64,000 bases of DNA from a virus (lineage: Duplodnaviria > Caudoviricetes), in IMG/VR virus record IMGVR_UViG_3300032323_001487, positions 1 to 64,000 of that record; one strand, 5' to 3'. Positions 7,336-61,100 of the stretch are shown here, piece by piece. Positions within the stretch are counted from its first letter, which is position 1; the number at the start of each line of letters is the position of its first letter. The position numbers and the translations under genes are program-made. The notes beneath the pieces were generated by a model that saw only the letters and a program-made list of their open reading frames with translations, did not search any database and was not told the DNA's origin.

Positions 7336-7370
7336 TTTGCGATTTTGTTGACTCGTGGTAATCTATACAA

Positions 7371-7484
7371 GCAGTCAAAGGTTCCTTGGGTTATCGTAGA
7401 TTGTGTTGTTGTACATAGTTATTCATCTCCTTTCAATCAATTGAGTAACGGAAAAGCCTCCACGAAAGTGGGGGCTTTTCTTTT
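7371..7484 (+). ncRNA. Candidate small RNA with an anti-SD tract (or a minus-strand micropeptide locus)
   Basis: Extended -10 TGGTAATCT at 7356-7364, no + strand ORF, tract CATAGTTATTCATCTCCTTTC, ends in a strong terminator. Confidence 0.45.
7451..7484 (+). terminator. Intrinsic terminator
   Basis: GAAAAGCCTCCAC-GAAA-GTGGGGGCTTTTC-TTTT. Confidence 0.85.
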
Positions 7485-7516
7485 ATCAGTTTCTGGAGAT
7501 AATTTATAATAGACGT

Positions 7517-26972: not shown

Positions 26973-27242
26973 ATGGAAAAAATCACAGTAAATCTAAAAA
27001 GCGAGGCGTTCGCCTCAATAGACCAACTCATTTCGACTTGGGACAACACCTTCTTGTATCGCCTAACTTGGACAGACAATGTGGCGAACACTTGGGAAGA
27101 GTATTACCCAACTTTGCCTATCGCTCTTGTTCGACTTTCGGCGCTCGCAGAGTGCGTGGATTTCCCAGACAAGTCGTTCAGGGCAGAGCCAGCGAAGTTC
27201 ATTACTTCTGCTCAGGAGTTCCTAGACGAGCAGGTGGCGTAA
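26973..27242 (+). CDS. Hypothetical protein
   Basis: SD AAGGA. Confidence 0.7.
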   Translation: MEKITVNLKSEAFASIDQLISTWDNTFLYRLTWTDNVANTWEEYYPTLPIALVRLSALAECVDFPDKSFRAEPAKFITSAQEFLDEQVA

Positions 27243-27472
27243 TGACAGTTCAAAAACTAATTGACCTGCTGAAACTCTCAGACCCAAACGAGCCAATCGT
27301 GTTTCAGTTTTTGCTACACGAACATGTAGAACTCGACTACTCAGCAGAGGAGTTTGAAGCAATCGCTGACCACCTAGAAGACAGCGACTCATTTGGCGAC
27401 GACACAGCACGAGTGCTAAAAGATTGGCTGGCTCGTGCGAACGAAGTTCTCGAAGAAGAGGGGTTGATGTAA
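27242..27472 (+). CDS. Hypothetical protein
   Basis: TAATG coupling, MTVQKLIDLL. Confidence 0.7.
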   Translation: MTVQKLIDLLKLSDPNEPIVFQFLLHEHVELDYSAEEFEAIADHLEDSDSFGDDTARVLKDWLARANEVLEEEGLM

Positions 27473-27505
27473 AATAAAAACACACAAAAGAAAGTTGAGG
27501 CTCTT

Positions 27506-27724
27506 ATGACTCAGTATCAGGTAGTCGTTCCTGTTTCGTTTCTCGTCGAAGCAAACAGCGACGCTGAGGCAAAGCGAATTGCCACAGGACTAATTCACGA
27601 ACACATTAATGGAAACAAGTTAGAGGCAGAGTTTATTGAGGAAACTTTTGGCAAGCAAGAAAAGCCAAACTTCTCTGTTCAGGACTTGGAAGCCATTGAG
27701 TGTTCCGCACTTGACAACGAATAA
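27506..27724 (+). CDS. Hypothetical protein
   Basis: SD GAGG; VEA.S..EA motif common in small phage proteins. Confidence 0.65.
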   Translation: MTQYQVVVPVSFLVEANSDAEAKRIATGLIHEHINGNKLEAEFIEETFGKQEKPNFSVQDLEAIECSALDNE

Positions 27725-27746
27725 ATAAATCATTACCATTGAGGTA

Positions 27747-28157
27747 ATGTCAAAAACAAAAAAGGACAAAATGACAACTATGACAAAAGTTCTACAAGAC
27801 TCAGCGTTCTACACGAACGAAGCAGGCACAGAGGTTGTATGGGACAACGACCCTAACAAGCGTTTCTATGTCGTGCGTGCTGGCGAAATGCGTATCCACG
27901 CAACCAAAGATGGACACACAGAGGTTATTCGCTACACAGACCAACTACGAGACTTTGGCATTACAGATGATGACGCGCTCGCGGTTTGGTCTGCTAAAGA
28001 CGAAGAAGTATTTTCTTGGGTGAACAACTCTTGGTTCGAGGTCTACGACGCAAATGACTCATACTATTTCTCAGACCCACTCCACTCTTTAGACGAGGCA
28101 GTAGAGTTCGCTCTAGCATTGTCAAAGACTTTTGGCAAAGATGGAGAGGTGGCGTAA
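27747..28157 (+). CDS. Hypothetical protein
   Basis: Own promoter; start may be 27771. Confidence 0.7.
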   Translation: MSKTKKDKMTTMTKVLQDSAFYTNEAGTEVVWDNDPNKRFYVVRAGEMRIHATKDGHTEVIRYTDQLRDFGITDDDALAVWSAKDEEVFSWVNNSWFEVYDANDSYYFSDPLHSLDEAVEFALALSKTFGKDGEVA

Positions 28158-28432
28158 TGAAAGTTCGACAAGCAGTTGGCGAGGTAATCCGTGAGGCACG
28201 CCTCGAGCGCAAGATGACTCTTCGAGACCTGTCGTCAGTTTCTAGCGTCGCCCTTGGATACCTGAGCGAACTCGAGCGTGGACAGAAAGAGGCTTCATCA
28301 GAAATCCTCGACAGCGTGGCACTCGGCTTGGGTATCTCACTTTCCGAATTAGTGGTTCAGACGGGTTATAGAATAATGTTGAACGAACCCGCCAACGAGC
28401 CTGAGAGACTCTTAGAGTTCGCACGGGTCTAA
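28157..28432 (+). CDS. XRE-family HTH regulator, ClgR-like
   Basis: TLRDLS....VALGYLSELERGQKEASSEIL closely resembles actinobacterial ClgR. Confidence 0.8.
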   Translation: MKVRQAVGEVIREARLERKMTLRDLSSVSSVALGYLSELERGQKEASSEILDSVALGLGISLSELVVQTGYRIMLNEPANEPERLLEFARV

Positions 28433-28447
28433 CTAGTTAGGAACACA

Positions 28448-28627
28448 ATGGGTGCTTTAGAGACGCTCTGGAAACTTGCTGACGATTTTGAAATCAAACC
28501 CGAACGGCTCGCCGAGAGTGCGGAACTGTCCGCTATGATTTCGAAGAACACCGCCTACGCCGAGTTATCGGCTTGGGTAAAGAAGAACCTTGGTAGTTTC
28601 AAGACCGCCAAGAAATCTTCTAAATAA
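28448..28627 (+). CDS. Hypothetical protein (59 aa, below the ORF track cutoff)
   Basis: MGALETLWKLADDF...; SD AGGA. Confidence 0.6.
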   Translation: MGALETLWKLADDFEIKPERLAESAELSAMISKNTAYAELSAWVKKNLGSFKTAKKSSK

Positions 28628-28659
28628 ACTTGACACGGCTAGGCTTATCGGCTAGCCTT

Positions 28660-28782
28660 GGAGAACAACGGGCGTAGGTTCACCCCCCTCGAACCTACGG
28701 CTCGTGCCTGATGGGTTTATTGCTTTTCCCATCACGGCTCGCCCCCTAACTGCTTCCCCCAGCGGTTAGGGGGTTTTCCTTT
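28660..28782 (+). ncRNA. Candidate three-hairpin sRNA with pyrimidine-rich loops
   Basis: Promoter TTGACA...TAGCCT, then hairpins with loops ACCCCCCTC, TTTATTGCTTTT and TTCCCCC; the last is followed by a U-tract. Confidence 0.6.
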
Positions 28783-28890
28783 GACGGCTCGCCCTTACAC
28801 GCTATGCGTGTCGCCCGTAGCGCTTGACGGATAGCCCTGAGCGTGTATAATGGTAGGACAGCCAACGGAGACGCAACGGAAGGAGTTGTA

Positions 28891-29118
28891 ATGGCAAGGA
28901 AGAAGAAGCCAGCACTCGACCAAGCGAACGAAGCACGACGCAAGGCTGAGGCGAAAGCCTTGGCAGAGATACTGCGAGAGCGAGCGAGGTCGAACGCAAG
29001 TGGCGTTCACGAGGACAAGCGAACAAAGCGTTTGCGAACTCGTGAGGCGAAGACGAGGGAAGCCCTGAGAGATTTTGACTCAGGGCTTTTTTCGTATCGA
29101 GCGAAGCGAGGGGTCTAG
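28891..29118 (+). CDS. Small highly basic protein with an internal terminator
   Basis: Promoter TTGACG-16-TATAAT, SD GGAAGGAG, 75 aa rich in Arg/Lys. Confidence 0.75.
   Translation: MARKKKPALDQANEARRKAEAKALAEILRERARSNASGVHEDKRTKRLRTREAKTREALRDFDSGLFSYRAKRGV
29060..29092 (+). terminator. Intrinsic terminator inside the 28891 ORF
   Basis: AGCCCTGAG-AGATTTTGA-CTCAGGGCT-TTTTT; the stop codon is at 29116-29118. Confidence 0.75.
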
Positions 29119-29167
29119 GTTTTCGCTTGGAAAAAGAGAGACCCCTTTACGCTCGACCGGGAAAAGA

Positions 29168-29196
29168 AAAATCCCCAACTTTCGTTGGGGACTTTC
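29168..29196 (-). terminator. Terminator for the minus-strand gene, possibly bidirectional
   Basis: TCCCCAAC-TTTC-GTTGGGGA with an A-tract on the left. Confidence 0.7.
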
Positions 29197-29211
29197 CTGA
29201 TTGGGTTTTGA

Positions 29212-29394
29212 CTACTCGACGATTGAAGTCGTGTTCAGCCAAACGCTCGCTGAACCAGAGTTGTCGTTCGAGTTGAAAGTCGAGACGAACTCAACTGCTT
29301 TGTCCCAAGCACCAACACCAAAGTTGATGTAGAACTTTGAGCCATTGTCCAACTGAACTAGGACACGAACCCCCTGCGATACTGCTTTTTCCAT
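29212..29394 (-). CDS. Hypothetical protein
   Basis: MEKAVSQG... with SD CAGGAG and a minus-strand TTGACA near 29469. Confidence 0.65.
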   Translation of the reverse strand: MEKAVSQGVRVLVQLDNGSKFYINFGVGAWDKAVEFVSTFNSNDNSGSASVWLNTTSIVE

Positions 29395-29587
29395 TTTCCA
29401 CTCCTGAGAGATAGAACCAACGCCAAACGATTGTTTGACCTTTTCAGGATAGGGTCTCATAAATCTTTTGTCAAGCGACACGCCAAAAAACTTTTTTGAA
29501 AATGTGCTTGACAAATGTCGCAGGTGTCCCCTATCCTGACAGAGTGAAGTTCGATTGGCTTCACGAAAAAAGCAAAAGGAGTTTCAA

Positions 29588-30034
29588 ATGACCAACCCAG
29601 CAAGCGAGCGACAGGTCGCATACATCAACACGCTAATCGCAGAGCGTGGCTACCCAGAGCCTATTGACCTAGCAACCTTGACATCAAGAACTGCCAGCGA
29701 ACTAATCTCGAAGTTGATGGCTATGCCAAAAATTAGTCGTGGGGCTGACAAGGCTTTGTCTCAGGGTATGTATCACCTAGCAGGCGACATCTATCGCTTG
29801 AAGGAGAGTCGCCAGACAGGTCGCCTTTACGCCACTCGCCTGACCATTGACCACAAGTTCGAGTATGCTCCGGGGATTGCCTATCGCCTAACCAGCGAAG
29901 ACAAGATGACCTTAGAGCAGGCAAAGGCTTATGGGGTCGAGACAGGGTTCTGCTGTGTCTGTGGGGCGTTCCTAACTGACGAGCGTTCTGTTCGTGATGG
30001 CATTGGCCCGGTCTGCGCCAAAAAGTATTTTTAG
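29588..30034 (+). CDS. DUF6011-like Zn-finger protein
   Basis: CCVCGAFLTDERSVRDGIGPVC; N-terminal ASERQVAYI module. Confidence 0.75.
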   Translation: MTNPASERQVAYINTLIAERGYPEPIDLATLTSRTASELISKLMAMPKISRGADKALSQGMYHLAGDIYRLKESRQTGRLYATRLTIDHKFEYAPGIAYRLTSEDKMTLEQAKAYGVETGFCCVCGAFLTDERSVRDGIGPVCAKKYF

Positions 30035-30166
30035 GCGTTATAAATCTGTTATAAAAAAGTTTATAAATGAACTTGACAAGACAGACCATAGCGACAATAC
30101 TTAGACCATAACTGAATAACAACTGAATACAAAAAACTCAATCATCAAAAATCCAAGAAGGACATA

Positions 30167-30466
30167 ATGAAAGAAATCAAGAAAGTTGAACTCGGTTTCA
30201 ACGCAGACGCACGACAGGCACTCGCAGAGTTGCTTGAAGCCAAGGCAGTTATCGCTCAGGCTACCGCCAAGAAGGAAGCCGCCCAGAAGGTTCTGTTTGA
30301 CCTAGTAGGCGACCACAACCAAGCGACCTTCGGTGGCGTTCTATCGTTCAAGATTATTGACGGCAAGAACCGCCACGCTGACCTGACAATTCTCGAAGAG
30401 AAGTATCCCGAGATTTTCGCCGAAGTAATCCGCACAACTGAATACAAGCAAATCCGAACCGCCTAA
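30167..30466 (+). CDS. Hypothetical protein
   Basis: Own promoter, SD AAGGA, followed by a terminator. Confidence 0.75.
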   Translation: MKEIKKVELGFNADARQALAELLEAKAVIAQATAKKEAAQKVLFDLVGDHNQATFGGVLSFKIIDGKNRHADLTILEEKYPEIFAEVIRTTEYKQIRTA

Positions 30467-30489
30467 TCCCCCAACGGCGTTCGGTCGGC

Positions 30490-30516
30490 AAGCCCCCAGA
30501 GCAATCTGGGGGTTTT
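30490..30516 (+). terminator. Intrinsic terminator
   Basis: AAGCCCCCAGA-GCAA-TCTGGGGGTTTT. Confidence 0.85.
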
Positions 30517-30523
30517 GTCTTTA

Positions 30524-30961
30524 ACGGCTAGCCCTTGACGGCTCGCCCTATGACCGCCAACGGATAAGACCAACGGCTAGCCCTTGACGGCTCGCCTGAT
30601 ACGGATTGACGGCTCGCCCTATGCCAACGGCTCGCCCTTGACGGACAGCACGCCAGCGGGTCGCTGACGGCTTGCCCTTGACGGCTCGCCCTTGACGGAC
30701 AGACGGACACAGACGGCTCGCCCTATGACCGCTGACGGCTTGCCCGTAGGAAGTCCAACGGCTTGCCCTAAGAGACCCTGACGGGTCGCTAACGGCTTGC
30801 CTATGACGGCTTGCCCTAAACGCCCAACGGGTGAGCGTGTAGAGCCTGACGGGTCGTGTTTTGACGGGTGGGGGAGTGGGAGTCGGGAGAGCCTGACGGA
30901 TAGGTAAAAGGGGGGTGAAGCGATTGACGGGTGGGAAGGGGGAGACGCCGGGGATTGACGG
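30524..30961 (+). repeat. Degenerate direct-repeat array, unit ACGGCTHGCCCTTG (14 bp)
   Basis: About 25 ACGG cores, all on +, most often 14 bp apart; no credible ORF. Confidence 0.85.
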
Positions 30962-31550
30962 GTGGGTAAAGGGGTAGTGGATTTTCCAGACTTGACAAAG
31001 TGGCTGAGTCATGTAGACGCACTCGAAGAAGGGACTCATGAAGGGGGTCGAAGATGGGGGACTCATGAAGGGGGGTTGGGAGTCATGGGGGCGAAGGGGA
31101 AGAAGGGGGGAAGTTCAGGGGGAAGGGGGAAGCCGGGAAAGGTTTTGGAAAAGGGGTAGGGGATTTTCCAAGCGAGTTTTTAGGTCTAAAAAACACAAGA
31201 TACAAAAAAAGTCAAGTCGTGATGAGTCGAAGTTCAGCAAGAAGCACGCAAGATGAGCAAGAAGCACCCAAGATAAGCAAGATAAGCAATAAAACAGGAG
31301 AAGTTCGAGAAAGTTGCCTCGAAAACGAGGCAGGAAAAAGGGGTATAGGTTTTTCCAAGCGATTTTCTCGACCCAAGAAGCGTCGAGTCCATCAAAAAAC
31401 ATAAGATACGAAAAAAGTCAAGTTTTATCGACTCATCAAACGCAAAAAATAACAAAGAAAACAAAGAACGAACCAAAAAACAGAGAACGAGCAAAGCGAA
31501 GGAGAAGAAGCGAAGGAGAAGTTCAGGAAGTTCAGCAAAGAAATAAAAAT
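30860..31550 (+). other. G-run tract followed by an A-rich, purine-skewed non-coding tract
   Basis: Many G3-G6 runs at 30865-31162, GGGACTCATGAAGGGG x2, and AAAAACAYAAGATACRAAAAAAGTCAAGT duplicated near 31189 and 31395. Confidence 0.7.
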
Positions 31551-47902: not shown

Positions 47903-50900
47903 ATGGCAACCAATCCGTACGCAGGAGAGAACTCGTTTCTTGCTCGTTCTGCAAGAGCGAAACGTCAGCGACGCGACCGCAAGGGTCGCTTTGCTTGGAT
48001 GGGTGGCGCTGCCCGCTTCTTTCTAGCGGTCGAGGGCATCGGCAAGGGTTTGTCTATCCCTAGTCGCTTTGCTGGCTACGACAAAAAATCTGACTCTTTT
48101 GATTTGGAACTTCAGGATGCTGGAGACATTGCCAAGTATGGAAAACTTGTTCGCGTGCCTGCTTCTAAAGTCGAGGGCATCAAGGCTTATATAAATCTTC
48201 CCAGCCTTGGCAAGCGAACCCCCACTAACGTTGAGAGCGACGTTCTTGTTAGCCCAGATGAAATAAAAAAGATTGATGCCCCTTCTGGTTGGAACCTTAC
48301 TAAGACCGAAAATGGCGTCGAGTTTTATGAGTCTGAAGATGGTTGGATAGCAGAAAAGTATTCGAATTTAGATGCATACAAAAAGTCTGGAAAGTCCCCC
48401 AACAAGTTCAAGGGTTCTGGAGTAAACGGCGTTCAGCAGTCTAGCCAGCCTGTTTATCACGTGTATCGCAATCCTAAAGCAGATGCTTTGATGTATGACG
48501 ATTCTGTAAGGTTCGGGGACGTTTCTGTCGCTGCCCAGACTTGGGGAGACACTCAGGCTATGGTCGAAAAGTTGGCTAGAAGAAAGTACGACTCTTTCAA
48601 GTCTAATTTGTCTTCTCTGCGTGCCTTGCCTTCGGCTTGGACTGACTATGACCCCTCTAGCCGTGGCTTGTTTAGTGACACTAAGTGGACGCTTTACAAG
48701 TATGAGTCTGGTAAGACCCCAACCCCCGCAAGAATTATGAAGATGTCTTCAATTCAGCGTAATAATTTATATAAGAAACTTAGCGAAAACCTTCGCAATC
48801 CTGAAGCGACCGCTAATTGGTATAAAGATGACCGAACCCTGAGAACCTCTTTCCAAGTTCGTCAGATGCCTGCGAATAGCGCAGATGCTAGGACGGCTCT
48901 AAATAAGGCTCGCGTTGACGGCAAGAAAATACAGACTTTTGATGGCACCAGTAAGTTGGACCCGAAGGAAGACGTTCTAGAACTTAGTTACTACAAGACA
49001 GATGGCAGTGAACCGATTGCTTACTTCCAAGACTGGGAAGATTTAGAGGATTGGATTGAGGAAGAACGCTTTTCCGCTAAGGAAAAACTTAAAAAAGAGC
49101 GCGAAGCCGCTAAAAATTTAGAGCCTATGGCTCGAAGGGCTGTGGAACTCCCTGATAGAAGCGATAGCGACATAATTCAGGACTTGGAGCCTGTTTCTAC
49201 GCCTGCTATCTCTAAATCTTCCTTCTTCAAGACTGAAAATTCAGACTTTGAGGGTGTTGCTAGTGAAAAAGCAAGCAGTCCTCGCTCTAGTAAATACATC
49301 GATGGTCCAGATGTTGTAAACGAGATAATGAATGAGGCTGCCAAGGTTGCTTTTGAGCAGGGCAGGTTCCCGATTCCTAGAAAAGGAGGTCTCTCCACCT
49401 CCGCAGACGGCAAGTTTTTGGCTCCCGACGTCAAGATTGCGCTACAACGCCAATACAAGCGTGTTTTTGACTCTTTGAAGGAGTCAAATCCAGACTTTAT
49501 GGCGAACTATGACACTTTTGATAAGTTTTGGGCTGATGTAGATAAAAATAGCGTGAGCACTTCTACTCCTTTTGGTGATGGACCAGAAAGTGAGTTCCGT
49601 CAGACTGTAAATAAGGCATACGCTAAAGAAATACTTGGGCTAGATGAAGACGGATTCATTGAAGTTTATCGAAACTCGATTCGTGGTGGTAGTAGAGAAG
49701 GTCAGTCTGAAGTAGACGCGGCCGCAGGATACTCGTCGCTCGACAAAAATATGGCTTGGGACTATCAAAGCCAAGCCACTGGAGATGGACCGTTCTCTGG
49801 ACGATACTCAATCAAGGTAAAGCCTGAAGAGTATGGCGGAATGATTGGTCATAGCGGTGGTTTGGATGAATTTGGTGTAGTTCTGGGTAAGAACGTGACC
49901 AGCATTGATGGGCGTATAGAAAAGCACGGCAAATTAGAGACTTTACCGATTTTAGATGGTGTGACTTTCGGTGCTAGAGGCACTGGCGGTGGACCATACA
50001 GATTTTTCAATGAAGGTTTTAGGTTTATCAAGCCAGCGGGCGAGTTTGATTACACAAATTTTGATGACCTAATTGCTCGCGCTGGTGGGAAAGACAAAGT
50101 TAGAGCCAAGATTTCTGAATTCTGGCCTAATACCACTTTCGACAGAGTAGAAAAAGATTCTTTTGGTTTGAATGGCAGTTCTTTTGAGAAATACATAACA
50201 AAACTTCCTAATGGCAAGGCTATTTTCAATCCAGCGTCCCTGACTTTGACCGAGTCTGGTTTCGGCGCTGAAGGTATTGACCAGAAGGGTGACCGAATTG
50301 ACAATCTTCTAAAGGGAGCATTGGCTTTCCAAGAACTAACTGGTCAAAAAATTATTGAGTGGCGTCGCGGTGGAAATCCAATTACCGATAAGAAGGCTTC
50401 TACAGCCCCAGAGACGACTGCAACCACCGAGAGGGCAGGAATTAGAGACCTATCTGGTTTCAAGCCCACAGGAGGTCCTCTAGGGTCTAATGAAGGTGGC
50501 ACCTACGAAGATGCTAACGGCAACAAAATTTATGTCAAGAAGCCTAGAACAAAACTCCACGGAGAGAATGAAGTCCTCGCTTCGATGCTCTACGAACGTC
50601 TAGGTGTCAACACAGCGAAAATTCGTTTTGGACGTTTAAAAGATGGCACTGAAGTAACTTACTCAGACTGGATTGACTCTAAGAAAGATTTGCGACAAAG
50701 GCTGAGCGACCCAGAGTATGTCCAGAAGATTCAAGAAGGTTTCGGTGTAGATGCTTGGCTTGCCAACTGGGACGTCGCTGGTGGCGCGTTAGACAACATC
50801 GTCACTGACAATAACGGTGACCCTGTTCGCGTTGACCCAGGTGGTGCTCTTTGGTTCCGCGCTCGCGGTGAAGCGAAGGGTGATGCTTTCGGCGAAAAGG

Positions 50901-53900
50901 TTGGAGAACTAGACACTCTTACTGACGGAAGCAATCCTCAGTCGAAGTTAGTTTTTGGAAGTATGACTAACGACGAGAAGCGCGACGCTGTCTCGGACCT
51001 TATAAATATTTCTCCTGACGAAATCGAAATGTTAGTAAATCAAAACATTTCTGACCGTGGCGTTGCTCAGAAAATGTCAGAGACTCTTATTGCTAGAAGA
51101 AAAAACGCTTTAGACAGATTCGGGTTGTCTGACGCAGTTCCTTTTGATTTTTCTAGACAGGCACCGTTATTTGGTCCAAGAAGGGAGCCTAGACATCGCA
51201 AGCGTAGAATCAGCGGATACAAATACTTAGTTGACCGTCGTGGCGTTCACTACCCAAGCAAGCCTCTAAGCGTCCAAGACTACTCTGACCTTAGGGCAGG
51301 TAGAGCAATGCCTAAGCACCTGCCTTTTGCTTTTGCTCCTACTAAGAATGGAAACGTTCACTACTTAGATAGCAACGGCAAACTCCACTGGGGTCAGTAT
51401 GGCGCTGCTGGTGCTTTGCTACGTCGCAAGAATCCAGAAGGCGACTACGAGTATCTGATGATTCAGAGAGGTAGAACTTCGACTGGACCCGGCAGGTGGT
51501 CATCGCCCGGTGGGGCACACGACAGTTTTGAAGATTCTCAGAACCCAGAGATTACTGCTAAGCGAGAGTTGCTAGAAGAACTGGGACTAGACCTCGAAGA
51601 CAGAATTCCTTCTTTCGTTCTAAGAAAAGAAGATGCTCCAGACTGGGCTTACAACATGATTGTTTATGACGTTGAGTTTGGAGAGTTTGACAAAATTGCG
51701 TTGGAGCGCGACAAAAAAGGCAAATTAATTGGAGATGCCATCGACGCTACTTGGCTAGACATTGATGAAATTAGATACATGAAAGACCGTCGACTACTGC
51801 ACGACGGCTTCTCTTCTGAATTGATAGAGCAAATTAACGAAGACAACGTCGGAGAAGGCACGATTGAGTTAATTTCTCCTACTCGTTATGCAAGAAGTAG
51901 AGTTCCTCAGGATTTGGGCGTTGAGTTAGTTCCAGCAACTATGGACAACAACCGAGTGAAGGCACCTTCTAAGCCTTTTACTGGCTCTGTAGAGCGTGAA
52001 CTAGATGGACTAACTAAGCAGGAAGCCATCGAAAAACTTAGAGGTATGGAAATATCTTTTATTGACTTCGAGACCAACGGCATCGACGAATTCGATGGTG
52101 ATTTGAATGGAAACAGGCCAGTTCAGGTAGGTATAGTAAAAGTCAAGGACGGCAAAGTCATAGACAGACTAAACGTTTATATGAACCCCGGTGCTCCGCT
52201 TGGCGAGTGGTCAAGCAAGAACCTGAAGAGAGACATAATGGTCCCTGACGGTAGCAGAATTCCTACTTTAGTTACTGACGATTGGCTAAAGCAACAGATT
52301 AGTCAAAATGATGCTCTAAAGCAGATAACTGATTTTATGGGCGAGAACCCTATCGTTGGTGGTCAAAACGTCTTGTTTGACTTAGAGATTCTTGACCGAA
52401 TGGCTGGTAACGCTGGCTCGGACTACAAGGTCTCTGGGACTGTCGACTCTATGACTTTGGCTGAATATTTATTGCCTAGATACGACTCGACTAAGGGAGT
52501 GGACGGACCTAAAAAGAAGAACGCTGACGGCACTTTTACTCCAAGTTATAGTTTGGGCACAATCACTCAGTTCCTAGGATTTGAGCCAACTAAGTGGCAC
52601 AGTGCGGACGGCGACGCCGAGGACTCGGCTTCTATGCTTTCTAAGATGCTCGAGCGAGCCGAGAACGATGATTCGATTGGCAATGATGCTTTCAACTCGG
52701 ATTTGAATACAGAACGTTATCGCGATGGACTAGAGAAATATAAAGCCGCCACTGACCCTGCTAGCCCTGCTACTAACAAGCAGGTCGAAGGTCTAGAAAA
52801 GATTTTGACTAAGTACCCAACCACCCCCGAAAAAGCCGATGCGCTCAGGGCGGATGTAGCACGCTCCACTAGAGGTGGCGCTACTGAACTTATGAATGAG
52901 TACGTAGAGGCTGAAGAAGCAAAGATAAGGCGCTACGATAGCGACCCAGAACTGGCTCAGATTAAGAGTGAACTGGCTGGCTTGGCTGGAGGGTTGCCTA
53001 CTGACCTTGAGGACAGTTCGAACCCATATCTGTCAGAGCCAAGGACAGACTTGGGTCCTAAAGTCTTTCCCCACCTAACAACAGAGGCGGAGAGACCGCA
53101 ACTAATTCAAGCAACACCTAGGTGGCAAGAACTTAATAAAAAAATTACTGCTGCTGGCGCTGTAGTTGGCAAAAAGGTTAGGGATGCTGTAACTGCCGAG
53201 CACAAAGCAAACTACGGAACTGACCCCTACCAACAACTTGAAGCGTTAAATAAAAAAGTTTTAGATTCTCAAGATTTTTATAGAAAAAAACTAAAGGATT
53301 CTAAATCAATCTTCAATAAATTCCGCCGCGATTGGCTGTCCAGAAACGAGGTTGCCACTAAGGCAGCAGCCGTTAAACTGCTCGAAGCCATTAATAGAAA
53401 CGAGACTCCGTCCTCTACAAATGACCTAGGAAGAGTAAGTTCACTTTATGACGAACTACTAAATATTAAAGTTAGTTCTGCTAATGACCAAGAAGCATTA
53501 GCCAAATTTTTTGAAGTTCTTGTTCAGAGCAAAGTCTCTGATGAACAAATATTCTTTTCATTGAGGGAATTAGCCCGAAAGGGAGACATCAGACCCGGTA
53601 CCCCAAGCCACAACGATTGGGTCGCTCTTTCGGATGTCTCTAGGGCCGAAGCAAGACTCGCTGAGGCGCAGGATAAACAGTCCGAGTTGGCGCTTAGAGT
53701 TGCAACCTTGCAGACTATAGAGTCTAGAAGAGTTTTGAAGGCTCTAGGGGTCGAGTTTAATCACGGTGTTCAGATAGAGTCCGAGTTTGTGGGAAGCGGG
53801 GAGATGCGTATTAATCACAATGTCTCTGCTAACAGGTGGGAAGGCGTTTTCATGCCAACAGCGCCAGACAGAGAAGCCAGACTGCTTAGAAACTACGGTT

Positions 53901-54679
53901 CTCAACTTTTAGAAGAGAAGACGGTCAGAGAAGGATTAAATTTCGGAACAGATTCTTTCCCTAAATCTTTTATTTCTTTGGTTAATAAGAGAATCACTAA
54001 AAATGGAAACAAACTTAAGTTGGGTGTGACCGCAAGAGGCTCGACTACCGTTGTTAGGAATGACGGTTCCACTGGCGGCCAACGCTCTTCAAATCCGTCT
54101 TTGCAGGAAATAAGTTCTGACTCAATTGTTTCAATGTCACTAAGTCCATCCCCCGAAGGCTTACCTGGGTCAAAAGACCTTGGCACAACTGCCGTGCACG
54201 AACTCACTCACTTGGTAGCAGAGACTATGAAAATGTCATCTTTCTTGGAATGGGCAAAAGTAAGCGAGTTAGGATTGGAAAAAACAAAGCCAGACGGCTC
54301 TCCAGATGTCTCACTTATTAGGACAGACGCGGTTAACAAGACAGAGGATGGCTCTGCCATCCCAGCCTCGCTACTAGACAGAGCAAAAATTTATGCACTA
54401 GAAGCGGGCATACCGCTCAGTACAATTTTGAGATACGCTGGAAAGTTCAATTCCGACTCCACTGGCAATAGATATGGGGTCGGTCCCAACAGCAATGGAG
54501 AACTTTTGTCGACAGTTTTAGAGAGTCTATTAGGTGGCACCCCTGCGAACTTAGTCAGGGACTATCATAGAAATGCATTTGAAAGAGACTCCGCATCTCC
54601 AGTAGTAGATGCTTCTCTAATGGACTGGGGGCTAGGCTCTCTACTAGTGTTAGATGAATACGCTAAGAGACAACTTTAA
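47903..54679 (+). CDS. Giant polyvalent protein: PI3/4-kinase- or HipA-like domain, Nudix, DEDDh exonuclease, HExxH
   Basis: GSNEGG..Y..YVKK/DAWLANWD/VDPGG (about 50.4-51.1 kb); PGG...AKRELLEELG (about 51.5 kb); DFETNG/GQNV.FD/HSADGD (52.0-52.7 kb); HELTH (about 54.2 kb). Confidence 0.85.
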   Translation: MATNPYAGENSFLARSARAKRQRRDRKGRFAWMGGAARFFLAVEGIGKGLSIPSRFAGYDKKSDSFDLELQDAGDIAKYGKLVRVPASKVEGIKAYINLPSLGKRTPTNVESDVLVSPDEIKKIDAPSGWNLTKTENGVEFYESEDGWIAEKYSNLDAYKKSGKSPNKFKGSGVNGVQQSSQPVYHVYRNPKADALMYDDSVRFGDVSVAAQTWGDTQAMVEKLARRKYDSFKSNLSSLRALPSAWTDYDPSSRGLFSDTKWTLYKYESGKTPTPARIMKMSSIQRNNLYKKLSENLRNPEATANWYKDDRTLRTSFQVRQMPANSADARTALNKARVDGKKIQTFDGTSKLDPKEDVLELSYYKTDGSEPIAYFQDWEDLEDWIEEERFSAKEKLKKEREAAKNLEPMARRAVELPDRSDSDIIQDLEPVSTPAISKSSFFKTENSDFEGVASEKASSPRSSKYIDGPDVVNEIMNEAAKVAFEQGRFPIPRKGGLSTSADGKFLAPDVKIALQRQYKRVFDSLKESNPDFMANYDTFDKFWADVDKNSVSTSTPFGDGPESEFRQTVNKAYAKEILGLDEDGFIEVYRNSIRGGSREGQSEVDAAAGYSSLDKNMAWDYQSQATGDGPFSGRYSIKVKPEEYGGMIGHSGGLDEFGVVLGKNVTSIDGRIEKHGKLETLPILDGVTFGARGTGGGPYRFFNEGFRFIKPAGEFDYTNFDDLIARAGGKDKVRAKISEFWPNTTFDRVEKDSFGLNGSSFEKYITKLPNGKAIFNPASLTLTESGFGAEGIDQKGDRIDNLLKGALAFQELTGQKIIEWRRGGNPITDKKASTAPETTATTERAGIRDLSGFKPTGGPLGSNEGGTYEDANGNKIYVKKPRTKLHGENEVLASMLYERLGVNTAKIRFGRLKDGTEVTYSDWIDSKKDLRQRLSDPEYVQKIQEGFGVDAWLANWDVAGGALDNIVTDNNGDPVRVDPGGALWFRARGEAKGDAFGEKVGELDTLTDGSNPQSKLVFGSMTNDEKRDAVSDLINISPDEIEMLVNQNISDRGVAQKMSETLIARRKNALDRFGLSDAVPFDFSRQAPLFGPRREPRHRKRRISGYKYLVDRRGVHYPSKPLSVQDYSDLRAGRAMPKHLPFAFAPTKNGNVHYLDSNGKLHWGQYGAAGALLRRKNPEGDYEYLMIQRGRTSTGPGRWSSPGGAHDSFEDSQNPEITAKRELLEELGLDLEDRIPSFVLRKEDAPDWAYNMIVYDVEFGEFDKIALERDKKGKLIGDAIDATWLDIDEIRYMKDRRLLHDGFSSELIEQINEDNVGEGTIELISPTRYARSRVPQDLGVELVPATMDNNRVKAPSKPFTGSVERELDGLTKQEAIEKLRGMEISFIDFETNGIDEFDGDLNGNRPVQVGIVKVKDGKVIDRLNVYMNPGAPLGEWSSKNLKRDIMVPDGSRIPTLVTDDWLKQQISQNDALKQITDFMGENPIVGGQNVLFDLEILDRMAGNAGSDYKVSGTVDSMTLAEYLLPRYDSTKGVDGPKKKNADGTFTPSYSLGTITQFLGFEPTKWHSADGDAEDSASMLSKMLERAENDDSIGNDAFNSDLNTERYRDGLEKYKAATDPASPATNKQVEGLEKILTKYPTTPEKADALRADVARSTRGGATELMNEYVEAEEAKIRRYDSDPELAQIKSELAGLAGGLPTDLEDSSNPYLSEPRTDLGPKVFPHLTTEAERPQLIQATPRWQELNKKITAAGAVVGKKVRDAVTAEHKANYGTDPYQQLEALNKKVLDSQDFYRKKLKDSKSIFNKFRRDWLSRNEVATKAAAVKLLEAINRNETPSSTNDLGRVSSLYDELLNIKVSSANDQEALAKFFEVLVQSKVSDEQIFFSLRELARKGDIRPGTPSHNDWVALSDVSRAEARLAEAQDKQSELALRVATLQTIESRRVLKALGVEFNHGVQIESEFVGSGEMRINHNVSANRWEGVFMPTAPDREARLLRNYGSQLLEEKTVREGLNFGTDSFPKSFISLVNKRITKNGNKLKLGVTARGSTTVVRNDGSTGGQRSSNPSLQEISSDSIVSMSLSPSPEGLPGSKDLGTTAVHELTHLVAETMKMSSFLEWAKVSELGLEKTKPDGSPDVSLIRTDAVNKTEDGSAIPASLLDRAKIYALEAGIPLSTILRYAGKFNSDSTGNRYGVGPNSNGELLSTVLESLLGGTPANLVRDYHRNAFERDSASPVVDASLMDWGLGSLLVLDEYAKRQL

Positions 54680-55118: not shown

Positions 55119-58100
55119 ATGACTGACGCTTTCGGGCTGTCCCACCCTGACGACTCGCCAATTGTCGCAGCAAGCAATGCTTACTCTGGTAAGAACTCGG
55201 CAGCAGCGAGACGTCTTCGCGTAAAACTTCAGCGCCGTGACCGCTATGGGCGCTGGGTCGAGATGGGTGGCGTACTCAGTTTCAAGGTGCGCGTCAATGG
55301 GGAAGTTCAGACCAAGATTGGTCGAGCAGTTGGTGGCTCCGAGCGTGACGGATACATTCGCGTTGTAATTCCAGAGGGCCAAGGCATTAGACCTGGCACT
55401 TATCACATCTCTGAAAAGGTATCCCGCACTGCTAAGGCGATGCTTGGCGAAGACTACCTAGAGGAAAAGGGCGTCAGAGTTGACTCTAACGGAAACAGTA
55501 TTGGCGAAGTACTGGACCGTGATATTGAAGATGTTAAGGACCTGTTTAGGGAAGATACTTCAGACCTAGACCGCGCCATGCTCGACGGTGTTCTAAGCGA
55601 TGACGAAAAGTCTGCCCTAGAGAAGTCACGACAGGCTTCCCCCACCCACAAGTCTTACAACGTTGTAGATGAGTCTGGTAAGCGCGTCGACGAGGATGAG
55701 GTCGGTGGATTGGACTTCACTGACATCGCAGACTCTAGGAACTGGCGTCTACGTAAGAACAGGGACGGCTCAATCAAGTCTGGTAAGTATCTGTCTCCAG
55801 ACAAGAAACTAAGAGCAGAAATCTACCAAACCGAGTCTGGCAAGACTTACATGAAGGTCTCTTACCCTACTGACAAGAACCTAATTGAGAACGAAGAGGT
55901 TGGCGCTCTTACTGAGGACGACCTACTTGGCGACTCGCGCAACCTAAGCACTGGCTACGGACGTGCGCTAGACAGCGTTGACAAGACCGTGAAGGGCGCT
56001 AAGGCGGTTCTACCTGCCCCAGATAAAGAAGAGCAGAAGAAGATTGACGCAGAGCGCAAGGCTATGGAGGACTTGGTAAAGGCTTCGCCAGTGCGCGAGT
56101 CTTACGCTATGCCAGAACTTTACATGGCTGAAGCAACTGACGACGAACTCTTTGCTCGCCTAAAGTCCTTGGAAGAACGAGACACCAACAATGACTCGCT
56201 ATTTCTTAAGGATGGAGAAATCCGCAACCTTCGGGCTGAACGCGAAAGCGTAATTATTGACGACATTCGTCGTGAACTAAAGTCCCGTGGTTTGGCTATC
56301 CCTAAGTCGGTAAAGCCTGCTAAGCGTCCACTAAAGAAGCCAGCAAAGCCTTCGGAGCAACCAGACAACTGGCTAAGCGCACCTAGCCTTCGCGTTGGAG
56401 ACCAGATTGTTGATGCTGACGGCAAGCGCAAGAAAATTGCTTCTATCACCCCTGAGCCAGACGGCACCCGCGCACTAATCAAGTTCGCTGATGGTAGCGA
56501 AAGAATGTACGAGGGTGAAGAACTTGTACAGATTGCTGGCAAGAACGTAATCAAGGAAGACGTTCCAGTAGAGCCAGTCGCCCCTAAGTTCCCTGACGCT
56601 AACCGCTCTAACGTCTACGACAACGCTGCCAAGGCTCTTGGCATTACGCCAGAGGAACTCAAGGCTGACAGAAGAATCTTTGATGCCGTAGAGCACACTT
56701 CTGACCTTATCGACAAGCGCGAAGCCGATGCTTTAGACGATTTTATGGGCGAGGACGGAACCACCAGACTTTACAGTTCCCTAACCGACGCTATTGCTAA
56801 GCACTACGCACTAACTAAAAACGGCGAACTTTATCAGCCAGAGCCTTTGGGCAGAGATAACAAGGATTTGCTGGAAAAGGCTCGCGCTGGCGGGGCAACC
56901 ATCAACCCGCTGAGCCGACGCAACAGGCTTCAAGGCTGGGCCGTTGCCGTTAGGGGCAACAACGACGAGATTATTGACACAGTGGCGCTCGAGGACGGCA
57001 TCGGCGACCTACTTATGAACGACTATGTCAATAGAAACATTGACAAGTTTGGTGGCAACAAGTATCTTGGTCTTTGGCACGATAAAAAGAGCCACGAATT
57101 GGTATATGACGTCAGCGAAGTTTTCAAGGAAGACAATGTTGAGGAAGCAACCAAGGCTGGAAAAGATAGAAACCAAAAGGCCATCTTCAACCTAAAAACT
57201 TGGGATGAGATTGAAACAGGAGGAACTGGAGACAATGGAAGAGCAAGAAAAGAGCGTGAATCAGCGCGTCTGGGCGGAGATAAGTCCAGAGGAGTGGAAG
57301 AACCTGAGCCAGAGAGAGCAGATTCTGCGCCTGAAGAGCGCACGCCTGTCAGTGATTCAGGAGTCGACGCAGCAAGAGCCGAAGACGAAGAAGGACTAAG
57401 AGAACATCTTCGCGAACTTCCTTCGTTTCTTCGAGACAACCTATTAGAACTTCTACCTACTGGCATTTATGAGTCAGATAAGAAATCTATTGCGGAGAAC
57501 ATTGACAGGCTAGAGAACTCCCTTGATAAGGGCAGTTCTGCGATTACTCAGGCTTTGAAGGCGCTAAGCCGTTCTTTGGCTAAAGCAGAGAAAAAGCAAG
57601 ACGAAAAAGACGCCGACAACCGAGAGGTCGCTGACCTACTCGATGAAACCATTATGCAAGTATCTCTTGCACACAACTTTGCTAAGTCAATTACCGTAGC
57701 ACCTTCAGCACCGGGTCAGCCAGAAGGCAAACTAACTCAGCCTGGTAGCGCAAGTAGCAGAAGAATTAGCCCATCTAGCGACGGTAGTGAATTTGCACCA
57801 ACTCCTAGGATGGCTAGGGATTCTGGCGGAGGCACTGAAGACCCGATTTCTGATTTGTCAGACATCGTTGACGACACTGACCCAGAAATTGTTCGCCAAC
57901 TTAGAGCAATGGATTTGGCTGTTGACTACGACAGTCTTAGTGATTCTCAAAAAAATACTTACAACAACCTAAAGACTTTCCAAGAGAACGCGGTCAGGGC
58001 TTTGACTATCGCCGCTGTCTCAGACAATATGGAAAAGTACAAGCGCCAGCGCACGATTGCCCTGAGTGTCACTAGAGCATATAACGGATTTATTACTGCC

Positions 58101-61100
58101 ATTAACACTGGCAACCCGAGGGAAGATTACATTTCTACTGGTTCTATGGAGAACAGAACCAGAAACCTGACTTTCATCGAAGACTCTATAACCACTAAAA
58201 CTGGCAGAGACACTAGAACCAAAATCATTGACAAAGCAAAAGCAATTTTTGTTGCTCGTGATGGCTCGGTCTATGAACTTAGCATGGACAGATACAACTC
58301 GGACATTGAGGCAAGAAAACTTGACGCTAGTGGAAATTATGTAAGGCTCCCTAGCGGTACGGAGCGAGCAGCAACCTTGAATCATCTTGGTGGTGGCGAC
58401 GACGGTTTCCACACCGAGAGCGAGGCATATTTAGACCCGTATAGCCCTAATTCAGACAAAATTAGACCAGTTTCTCCCGGAATGATTAGAACAGAGGACT
58501 CTCTTCAATCTAGCGGATTGGCTGGAGCGCTCTATGCTTTCCTAGGATACGTACACAACCAAAATGGTCGTGGATTTATGCACAGTGCTTACTTGCTAAG
58601 AATGGGAAACTTAGCAAGCAAACTTGTAAATAAAAATCTTAAATATCACCACCCTGCCCAAAAAGAAAAAGCCCTTACAGTAATCAATCCAAATTCGGAC
58701 ATTATTCAGTCAATGAGTGACGCTGGCTGGTTTGACCGCAGTTACAGGGCTTTTACCACTTTGACTTATTACCCTAGTGACCACAGTTCGCTAGATATTC
58801 CTGGAAAGATGACGTTCCAAAACTTCCTAAAGCCCTTGGACGGCAGTCTCGCTGGTGGAGACAACATCGGTCCGCTTTGGAATATGGATAAATCTATCCA
58901 CGAACTTGCCGACGAACTCGGTGTCGCTGCTATGGAATTACCTGACGTGGCTAACTACTTTAAAGATTATCTTGATGGTGGCAAAAAAGACTGGGAACTA
59001 ATAAACATCCAAGGCACGCTTCTTGATACCGCTTTCTTGGGCGGAGCAACAAAGGAAGATGCTCTTTCTAAGTTGCGTAATCTAAAGAAAGCAGTAGATG
59101 TTATTAGCGCTGACGTCTCTCTTGGTTCTAGCATTAGAAGAATTTCTGGAGGATTGTCCGAATCTCTAGACGACCTAATTCCCGCTATCGATGCTAGAAG
59201 TTTTGATGACAGCACTAGGGTAGAGCGCCCTAAGGACATGGACTTTAATGCTTTCAGCAAGGTCAACTCTGACCCTTACACGGCTAAGAATGGCTATGAG
59301 CCGTTTAGAACCGACTTTATTATGCCAGAGGGTGTTCCCCCTATTGATTCTTCTGATTCATATATGCCAAAGAGAGTGTATCCAGCAGAGTGGATAAACT
59401 CAGACACCCCTGCTCCTAGTTCATGGAGCGACGAGGGCGGAACTCTAGAACTACAGACAGAAGAGCGACTGGTGGATGCTCTAAGACAGAGCATTAGAAA
59501 CAAGTCTGACCTAGCAGTTATGTCGTTCGATGGTGTAGACCGAAACATACAAGCACGCTCTATTTATGACGCCATTAGACGTAAGAGCCTAGACCACAAT
59601 ATGATTCTCGCCAAACTTTACGACGAGGTTTTGGGTGGAGACGAAAACCAAAGAAGACTAGAAGAGTTTAGAAGAACTGCCCCTTCTATTAAGAGCGAGG
59701 CTGCCGAACTAATCGAGTCCGTGGGAATCGTGATTCCGCCAGCAGACTTTGAATTTGGCGGTATGTACGACGAGGATGCTCACAGACTTTCCGCTGGCTC
59801 TGCAATCTTTGACGATGAAGTTACTGGAGAGGGTTTTGGTCTCCAACTAAGCAAACTTTCCGAAAACGAGAACCTACAAACACCTAGTTACATGTCCTTG
59901 GACCGCAACCCATACGTTAGCGTAGATGAAGCGGACGACTGGTCCCGCTTAGGAACGAGTGACAATCCTAGGATTATTGCTAGAAACTTCTCTCGCTCTG
60001 GACTGTCTCAGGGGCTTGTTAGTGCTGTAAAGAGAAACAGTAGTTATGTGAACCTACAGTTTGCTAATGGCACCGAGAGAAGTATCTCAATTCTTGCAAT
60101 TAGAGATGCGCTTCAGCACCAAGGTGTAGACACTAACGCGCTTCTAAAGTCCGCTGGGGCGAAGAGGGTCCGCGAGTACATCAGGTCTCTCAACGTGGCA
60201 GATAACGGCGAAAGAGTAACTAATACTTTCCAGGTCGGAGCAAATCCCGGCTTCTTGAGAACCAACACTTACGCTAACCCAGAGACTGAATCTAACGGTA
60301 GAGCGACTGTAATTATTGATGACCCTAATGGCACTTCTTTTGATTCTTTGGGTTCTGGCTCTAAGGTTATCGGTCTCACTCGTTTAGACACTACAACCGA
60401 CCCGTTGCGACCTTACGCTGTAGTTTGGTTTGGCAAAAAAGATGCTGTCGCATTGAGCAGATTCAACGTTGAGGACCACGAAAGTAAAGTTGTAGAGCGC
60501 TATGAGACAAGAGCAGAGGCAGACGCCGTGCTTGGCGATTTGGCTAGAGACGACATGTTCTTTGTCGACCAGATTATGCCTGGCTCGGGAGCCTTACCTC
60601 CACTAAAAATTACAAAGCAAATTCCTTCTACTTTGCCTATGGTAGAAAGACGGCTAGGTTCCAAGACAACTAGTTACCAAATTGGAATTATTGACCCTAA
60701 GGTTGTCCACTTTTCTGACAACAGAGGGGTGCTCGGGGAAGGTGGCAAGGACGACCTGTTCCGCGATGACAATGGCAACATACTTGCAACCGTAACTGCT
60801 AGCGAAGACGGACAGTTCCAAGCCAAAGTAGACTCGCTCACCGAAACTTTCACTAACAGAGACATGGCTTTGTGGTGGGCTGGCGACGAGTTGGCAAGAA
60901 AATTAGAAGCAAATGTAAACTTTTTTGATAACAGTCGGGTTCCTGCGGAACGACCTAAAAACTTTTTGTCTGGCTACGAAGAGTCAGAGACTCTAACGAC
61001 TGACCTGACTCTTTCTACTTATGGAGTTCTTTCCTACAACGAAGGCGCTATATTAAGAAAGATTAAGGTTACTGGTCAGCGGGCTAGGGCATCTGCCTAC

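Follow-up and report, generated by a model that had tools for sequence, protein, structure and literature searches.

Does a small basic phage gene make messages that end before its stop codon, and if it does, is the gene built to do so? The question is posed by a plus-strand ORF at positions 28891-29118 of a 64,000-nucleotide stretch of phage DNA (the window), the first 64 kb of a 77,230-base IMG/VR virus record with a completeness rating of 58%. To our knowledge, nature offers very few genes whose messages lack a stop, namely, arfA and brfA, and these two revealed how cells gauge their capacity for rescue. The open-access literature searched contained no description of a phage gene expressed in this way. 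An earlier note on the window, made from its letters alone, had seen ArfA/BrfA-like logic in this gene and had proposed that it encodes a ribosome-rescue factor.

Anatomy of the gene and its surroundings

The gene has a sigma-70-type promoter of its own, TTGACG-16-TATAAT, at positions 28824-28851 of the plus strand, with 11 of 12 positions matching the consensus. This is the best of five promoter-like sites in 27000-31000; shuffled sequences gave a mean of 2.2, so the count alone is not significant. Its -35 hexamer is one copy of a repeated TTGACGG motif. A strong Shine-Dalgarno sequence, AAGGAG (28880-28885, plus strand), lies 5 nt upstream of the ATG at 28891, and the ORF runs from there for 75 codons, encoding a small basic protein, to a TAG at 29116-29118. 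Dedicated promoter, ribosome site, and basic ORF were as the earlier note had described them, apart from a start codon that it had placed one base away, at 28892. The ORF can also be read in a 91-aa form from a GTG start; that codon lies upstream of the -10 box, so the promoter at 28824-28851 cannot serve it.

Within the ORF, on the coding strand, a GC-rich hairpin with a T tract ends before the in-frame stop codon. The hairpin (29060-29088, plus strand) has a perfect stem of 10 bp, or 17 bp counting G-U pairs, with the 5′ arm at 29060-29069 (codons 57 to 60), a 9-nt loop at 29070-29078, and the 3′ arm at 29079-29088 (codons 63 to 66). The T6 tract occupies 29087-29092 (plus strand), which would place the 3′ end of the transcript at about 29092-29096, and 23 nt separate the end of the tract from the TAG. 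The claim that a hairpin and T tract precede the TAG therefore held, with corrected dimensions (9 bp and about 24 nt had been given). The 40-nt stretch of the hairpin folded at -17.9 kcal/mol (z -4.69), a stability that no sequence among 200 shuffles equaled. Because the standard terminator scan allows only loops of 3 to 8 nt, this hairpin was missed by it; a 9-nt loop also exceeds those of textbook terminators, which counts against an efficient terminator. A second hairpin, found by the fold scan at 29097-29156 (plus strand), contains the TAG and lacks a T tract.

In a survey of the whole window, ten strong terminators elsewhere had the stop codon 43 to 66 nt before the end of the T tract, and the ORF at 28891-29118 was the sole credible one with its stop 3′ of the T tract. 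The other such case, at 7345-7509, is a doubtful 54-aa ORF with a TTG start and no ribosome site. A strong terminator lies at 7453-7478, 118 nt past the stop of a 121-aa ORF, with TTGACT just after that stop; the segment 7345-7480 could be an extended 3′ UTR, or it could be a unit for a small RNA.

Some other readings of the hairpin and the unit were discarded. A role for the hairpin on the minus strand was rejected because that strand has no T tract. A -1 slip on TTTT (29073-29076) into the TGA at 29076-29078 was set aside because a canonical slippery heptamer is lacking, the site falls in the hairpin loop, and a homologous locus, L030, has TTTC there. The 235-nt unit was not taken for a noncoding RNA, since its protein is conserved across 50 clusters.

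The terminator-before-stop arrangement of this small basic gene is real. The same gene, encoding a protein 100% identical to that of the window, is present in a 132,624-base contig (L002), and the DNA of hairpin and tail in L002 and in another contig, L018, is identical to that of the window. Runs with DNA of the gene's stretch came from freshwater or lake metagenomes of 14 studies, and no RNA run was among them. Positions 29056-29127 were free of substitutions and indels in contigs of three runs from three studies (X17, X13, and X7), the count being three because the contigs of a fourth run (X20) stop short of the hairpin. The reading frame is kept in all 14 members of the 90% protein cluster (70 contigs, from NCBI, JGI, ENA, and Logan). 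One extra T in the TTTT at 29073-29076 would have put the TGA at 29076-29078 in frame and closed the protein with ...ALRDF, close to where family members usually end; a homopolymer or assembly error hiding the stop was weighed. Identical sequence in independent assemblies, with one frame throughout the cluster, L002, and L018, argues against that error. The gene might instead be a decaying pseudogene, and three relatives (P0011, L042, and L045) do lack a near-invariant histidine of the family, but promoter, Shine-Dalgarno sequence, ATG, and core are all intact and conserved. Error or decay has been largely refuted and is scarcely credible.

Upstream of the gene, four hairpins lie at 28630-28780, between a 59-aa ORF and the gene's promoter; each is followed by a copy of an ACGGCT motif, and one of them (28742-28773, followed by TTTTCC) is a good terminator. 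Dense repeats of the TGACGG or ACGGCTCGCCC type, all on the plus strand, fill 30520-30960 and also occur at 28504-28838. The 11-mer ACGGCWCGCCC (with at most one mismatch) was counted 18 times against 1.08 expected, and none of 100 shuffles reached 18. The array holds 12 copies of it in 30524-30816 and 17 copies of TGACGG in 30536-30956; judged by its sequence, it looks like a set of iterons or binding sites for an origin, a centromere, or a regulator. A long minus-strand ORF at 30548-31066 is probably an artefact of the repeats. Over the whole window, TGACGG occurs 40 times on the plus strand and 6 times on the minus strand, a bias that comes only partly from the array. In the window (28781-28838), in L030 (2860-2925), in L042, and in L045, the 150 nt upstream of the gene contain three copies of TGACGG, the last of which, in the window, forms the -35 hexamer of the promoter; more distant relatives showed no TGACGG link to the small gene. 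Since these four loci are syntenic, shared ancestry and a functional tie of TGACGG are indistinguishable.

Downstream, the minus strand carries a convergent 100-aa ORF (29212-29514) without a family match, and the terminator survey placed the terminator of that gene at 29168-29195 (hairpin 29158-29199, minus strand). ORF and terminator are absent from L002 and L018: in a comparison of window positions 29162-29520 with L002 (3262-3330) and L018 (1442-1510), homology breaks near 29161 and resumes before the promoter of a DUF6011 gene. By this comparison, 29162-29520 appears as a small gene cassette inserted or deleted between close relatives. The DUF6011 gene (29555-30034) has its own promoter-like site at 29508-29537; its 159-aa product matches PHROG 636 (E 2.7e-30) and bears the DUF6011 domain (E 5.6e-13) at the C terminus. 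Two giant ORFs are found at 47903-54679 (2,258 aa) and 55119-63998 (more than 2,960 aa, open at the window end). A scan of the whole window detected only three tRNAs and no tmRNA, and Rfam had no match in 28000-30000 at E ≤ 1.

The protein family and the place where its members stop

The window protein belongs to a family of small basic phage proteins, typically 50 to 65 aa in length. When 1.84 billion representative sequences were searched with an HMM built from six sequences, 50 matched at E ≤ 1e-3, of which 9 reached E ≤ 1e-10; the 50 matches are 41 to 108 aa long, except for four long, weak, repetitive ones. Family members share an N.ARR.AE helix, an RSNA.G.H loop, a K/R-rich second helix with R.RTR, and the end ALR[DE][FW]. 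All of these motifs are present in the window protein, which is 35 to 70% identical to 33 members. AlphaFold2 run with 34 sequences predicted two helices, at residues 8-33 and 43-64 (pLDDT 75, pTM 0.32), and the conserved core comprises codons 1 to 63 (28891-29079, plus strand), with relatives ending at residue 63/64. The near-invariant histidine (the column of H40) is preceded by V, T, A, S, or E, and by K in 1 of 34 sequences. It is replaced by Gln in L042 and L045 and by Val in P0011, so the residue is not essential in that branch.

Searches beyond the family yielded little. Pfam, PHROGs, and NCBIfam held no credible family for the protein or its relatives; at E ≤ 1, the only Pfam match of the window protein was SPT2 (E 0.44), not ArfA (PF03889), and none of 10 relatives matched ArfA. 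DUF7230, an Atlas lead with a score of 0.90, received no support from the Pfam scans. A 34-sequence family profile compared with all PDB chains at E ≤ 10 produced one chance match, a Cas12a protein, and Foldseek of the AlphaFold2 model against PDB at E ≤ 10 produced 0 matches, a result of little weight given a weak model (pTM 0.32). No match to cultured phages was obtained by blastn of 27500-30500 or tblastn of the protein, and a scan of bacterial genomes for the family found no relative. One family member, P0074, weakly matches (E 7e-3) a hypothetical protein of a Microbacterium phage. A search for longer, fused forms found none, which is weak evidence.

These results divide the earlier view of the protein. 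Its author saw no similarity to ArfA or BrfA, and the Pfam, PDB-chain, and fold searches agree. The proposed phage ribosome-rescue factor, on the other hand, gained no profile, PDB-chain, or fold match, and there is no KH dipeptide in its 75 residues. Our guess is that the protein is an early nucleic-acid-binding protein and not a ribosome-rescue factor, based on its charge, its small size, an early-type promoter, and an XRE-type regulator as neighbor. The regulator adjoins the gene at 28157-28432 (HTH_3 at E 1e-9).

Relatives of the window protein end where its core ends. In an alignment of 34 members, 32 had no tail past the column of window residue 63/64, the exceptions being the window protein and P0011. 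Likewise, the profile end was the protein end in 9 of the 11 best HMM matches, with the window's own cluster and P0011 as the exceptions. Among the 25 non-window 3′ regions for which DNA was examined, every one had a stop at the family's usual end, and 4 had a terminator hairpin over the last codons. In distant relatives the next gene follows the stop directly (a TAATG or TAAATG overlap) or after a short spacer, and none of their 3′ regions has a terminator.

In L030, in L032, and in the pair L042/L045, the gene is preceded by a promoter of its own, and a hairpin that encloses the stop covers the same terminal codons. Homology of the L030 and L032 promoters to that of the window was judged by eye from the alignment. 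The L030 protein is 63% identical and ends ALRDFDS; its hairpin, homologous to that of the window, consists of AAGCCCTAAGAG, the loop atttcga, and CTCTTAGGGTTT, followed by TTTC (-16.7 kcal/mol, z -5.63). The L030 TAG lies in the 3′ arm, where it pairs with the Leu-59 codon CTA of the 5′ arm. L042/L045 have a 14-bp hairpin with TAA at the top, followed by TTTTCTTTTT; the folds of L042 and L045 gave -28.6 and -27.5 kcal/mol (z -5.6 and -5.3). The hairpin of L032 is weaker (8 bp, -13.5 kcal/mol, z -1.72); its TGA sits where the stem meets the T tract. Hairpins over the same codons in three related lineages indicate a positionally conserved terminator.

The earlier note had asked whether homologs keep a hairpin upstream of the stop, and had counted in-frame stops within or before the hairpin against its own reading. 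Homologs do keep the hairpin, but the stop is inside it: TAG in L030, TGA in L032, and TAA in L042/L045. The terminator-before-stop layout is not conserved among homologs, being absent from all 25 non-window relatives with DNA, and the stop is lacking only in the window cluster and, by protein sequence, in P0011. Because homologs stop within or before the hairpin, the non-stop state is best read as a derived stop loss and not as the design of the family.

A comparison of the window with L030 suggests how the stop was lost. The two are identical in 74% of columns through promoter, 5′ UTR, ORF, and hairpin. In the 3′ arm, L030 has GAC TCT TAG GGT and the window has GAC TCA GGG CTT, so that the lost-stop site, TCT TAG in L030, corresponds to window codons 64 and 65, TCA GGG (29080-29085, plus strand). 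The 3′ arm of the window is 2 nt shorter (TCTTAGGG became TCAGGG), and the Leu-59 codon of the 5′ arm, CTA in L030, is CTG in the window, a synonymous and compensating difference. Together, the shorter arm and the synonymous change opposite it give a perfect stem without a stop. The stop-bearing state was taken as ancestral because every outgroup stops at the same place; the direction given to the 2-nt change rests on parsimony.

P0011 is a singleton from one 1,722-base contig, 53% identical and with a core of the L042 type. Its tail, SGCVFSY.A.RG, known from protein sequence only, is identical to the window tail at 8 of 12 positions and has one extra codon. Such a tail could have arisen by recombination or by a second stop loss, or either the tail or its DNA could be under constraint. 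The likeness makes a purely neutral, untranslated tail hard to uphold, which counts against the stop-loss reading.

Selection on the gene and the fate of its messages

Variation within the window lineage was examined in the 90% protein cluster, whose 14 members have 9 distinct sequences from the ATG. The core varies at 5 of 63 codons (R3K, D10N, Q11P, A12V, and V39A). Codons 64 to 69, which cover the 3′ arm and the T tract, are invariant, while 3 of the 6 codons from 70 to 75 vary (R70P, G74S, and V75G/D/R), with four states at residue 75. This last segment and the TAG (29098-29118, plus strand) lie past the terminator and are in free drift; the TAG is replaced in 3 of 14 members, whose proteins extend to 98, 98, and 102 aa. 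Tail and core differ in variability with a Fisher p of 0.018, or 0.004 with the lost TAG counted, both rough values, given the relatedness of the cluster members and the short contigs behind some of them. The core DNA of the window, L002, L018, and the run contigs shows 3 synonymous and 2 conservative changes. Stops upstream of the T tract occurred in no variant (0 of 14, in 70 contigs). Purifying selection seems to act on the core in the lineage without the stop; a conserved core means that the protein is still made by some route, which counts against the non-stop reading. Taken together, these sequences show core and terminator conserved, with tail and stop adrift.

Anatomy, hairpin homology, stop loss, and tail drift have been observed or computed. 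The explanation that we favor, and regard as fairly probable, is a derived stop loss inside the conserved embedded terminator of a monocistronic phage gene, whose terminated messages are non-stop. With no in-frame stop before the predicted 3′ end, a non-stop mRNA is a fair prediction, and the messages of the window gene probably end without a stop. The sub-clade has an intrinsic terminator packed into the last codons, usually with the stop within the hairpin; in the window lineage a shortened 3′ arm and CTG at Leu-59 left the stem perfect and the stop gone, the frame continuing for 12 codons to a chance TAG. We infer from the sequence that the hairpin terminates the 235-nt monocistronic unit efficiently, at about 29092-29096, that most messages are non-stop, and what becomes of the product. 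Ribosomes at the 3′ end would need host rescue, either by tmRNA tagging and proteolysis or by a release pathway. The product would end near ...DFDSGLF, a few residues beyond the family's normal end, and would be either tagged and degraded or released untagged via a back-up pathway. Protein output would be lowered and would depend on host rescue capacity. Messages that read through would yield the 75-aa form, with a 12-codon tail presumed to have no function of its own. The gene is likely too short for the first ribosome to catch the polymerase before the terminator, and the same shortness may let the embedded terminators of relatives work.

If the hairpin is leaky or melted by a following ribosome, most messages would instead reach the TAG and give a 75-aa product with a harmless 12-residue tail, an outcome that we consider possible though doubtful. 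Intragenic terminators can be suppressed by translation under tight coupling, according to PMC5021804. Two more hairpins lie downstream (29097-29156 and 29158-29199), the frame is open in all variants, P0011 differs by a one-codon insertion, and a conserved core implies protein production. Yet a TAG lost in 3 of 14 members, with proteins of 98 to 102 aa, is not a maintained stop, whereas the hairpin arm and T tract are invariant. Embedded terminators kept in three related lineages argue for function despite translation, the first ribosome on so short a gene is unlikely to reach the polymerase, and the second hairpin has no T tract.

A derived stop loss leaves room for a selected switch, as the earlier note had it: an ArfA/BrfA-like phage ribosome-rescue or ribosome-binding factor that would accumulate only with trans-translation saturated. 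PMC6881298 and PMC8012679 describe a brfA-type anatomy, in which a gene of about 72 codons has a rho-independent terminator ahead of its stop, and this anatomy is shared by the window gene. Its protein is small and basic, its core is still conserved, a widespread lake phage (14 studies) is fixed for the stop-less allele, no stop having been regained in any of 14 members, and a second lineage without the stop may exist in P0011. That rescue factors can be phage-borne follows from a published pelagiphage gene in which Pfam recognizes an ArfA domain (PMC12753301). We nevertheless find the switch decidedly unlikely. There is no match to Pfam ArfA, to any family, or to any PDB chain or fold, and no KH. 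The rest of the family has normal stops, often with translational coupling to the downstream gene, so non-stop expression is not a family property, and the closest relatives retain a stop within the same hairpin. Persistence of the stop-less allele may also be a mutational trap rather than the outcome of selection, as there are few sites for regain: a single change can restore a stop inside the terminated message at two codons only, TCA and TCG, of which the first costs a stem pair and the second sits at the transcript edge. The ArfA/BrfA-like logic of the earlier note survives in its structural half, an embedded terminator present in three related lineages, and is unsupported in its functional half.

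If the derived stop loss is right, the phage may simply bear it, with the aid of a strong promoter and ribosome site, or may make use of it. That the loss was adaptive strikes us as unlikely; a cosmopolitan freshwater phage would then have made an early, strongly promoted gene into an obligate non-stop message, its protein accumulating only with host trans-translation saturated or disabled, or the abundant non-stop message would itself drain tmRNA-SmpB. The adaptive case would be stronger if P0011 were a second, independent stop-less lineage.

Comparison with known systems

The nearest comparison lies within the family. The terminators of L030, L032, and L042/L045 belong to the same gene, at the same hairpin position, and with their own upstream promoters, as in the window. 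They differ in that a stop would remain in their terminated messages, a few nucleotides short of the 3′ end, and none in those of the window lineage. This comparative series points to a route of origin, in which the stop in a terminator stem is lost and the hairpin is retained by a compensating change. Window and L030 form a natural allele pair for the cost or benefit of a stop-less terminator.

Beyond the family, brfA (yqkK) of Bacillus subtilis has 71 sense codons with a rho-independent terminator within the coding region; reporters and smpB mutants established that its message is non-stop and its product tmRNA-tagged and degraded (PMC6881298). The window gene is like it in having 75 codons and a terminator that ends 23 nt upstream of the TAG. 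The two proteins share no sequence or structural likeness, and the arrangement is experimental in brfA and predicted from sequence here. In addition, the window arrangement is a lineage-specific stop loss in a phage-borne gene.

arfA of E. coli and other proteobacteria has 72 codons and a stem-loop in the ORF, where premature termination or RNase III cleavage leaves a non-stop mRNA, and its C-terminal residues beyond the stem-loop are dispensable; the KH motif of ArfA and BrfA contacts the mRNA entry channel (PMC8012679, which cites PDB entries 5MDW, 5MGP, and 6SZS for the two factors). ArfA and BrfA rise in level upon failure of trans-translation, and their release of non-stop ribosomes depends on RF2 (or on RF1/RF2). 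The window protein is also small and basic, with a stem-loop in its ORF. It differs in lacking a PF03889 match at E ≤ 1 and in lacking KH, and its 10-bp stem (17 with G-U pairs) resembles a terminator and not an RNase III site. Among phage genes, gp30 of pelagiphage HTVC027P is annotated with an ArfA domain and matches Pfam ArfA (PMC12753301). It too is a small phage-borne gene tied in print to ribosome rescue, but its Pfam ArfA match is lacking in the window protein.

We would class the window gene as a new case of the terminator-before-stop layout, carried by a phage, unrelated to the ArfA and BrfA families, and arising by loss of a stop inside a conserved terminator. If the layout is only tolerated, it provides a base rate and a warning against reading each terminator before a stop as regulation. 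If the stop loss should prove adaptive, this would be the first viral use of ArfA/BrfA-type gating, reached via a two-step change in a terminator stem.
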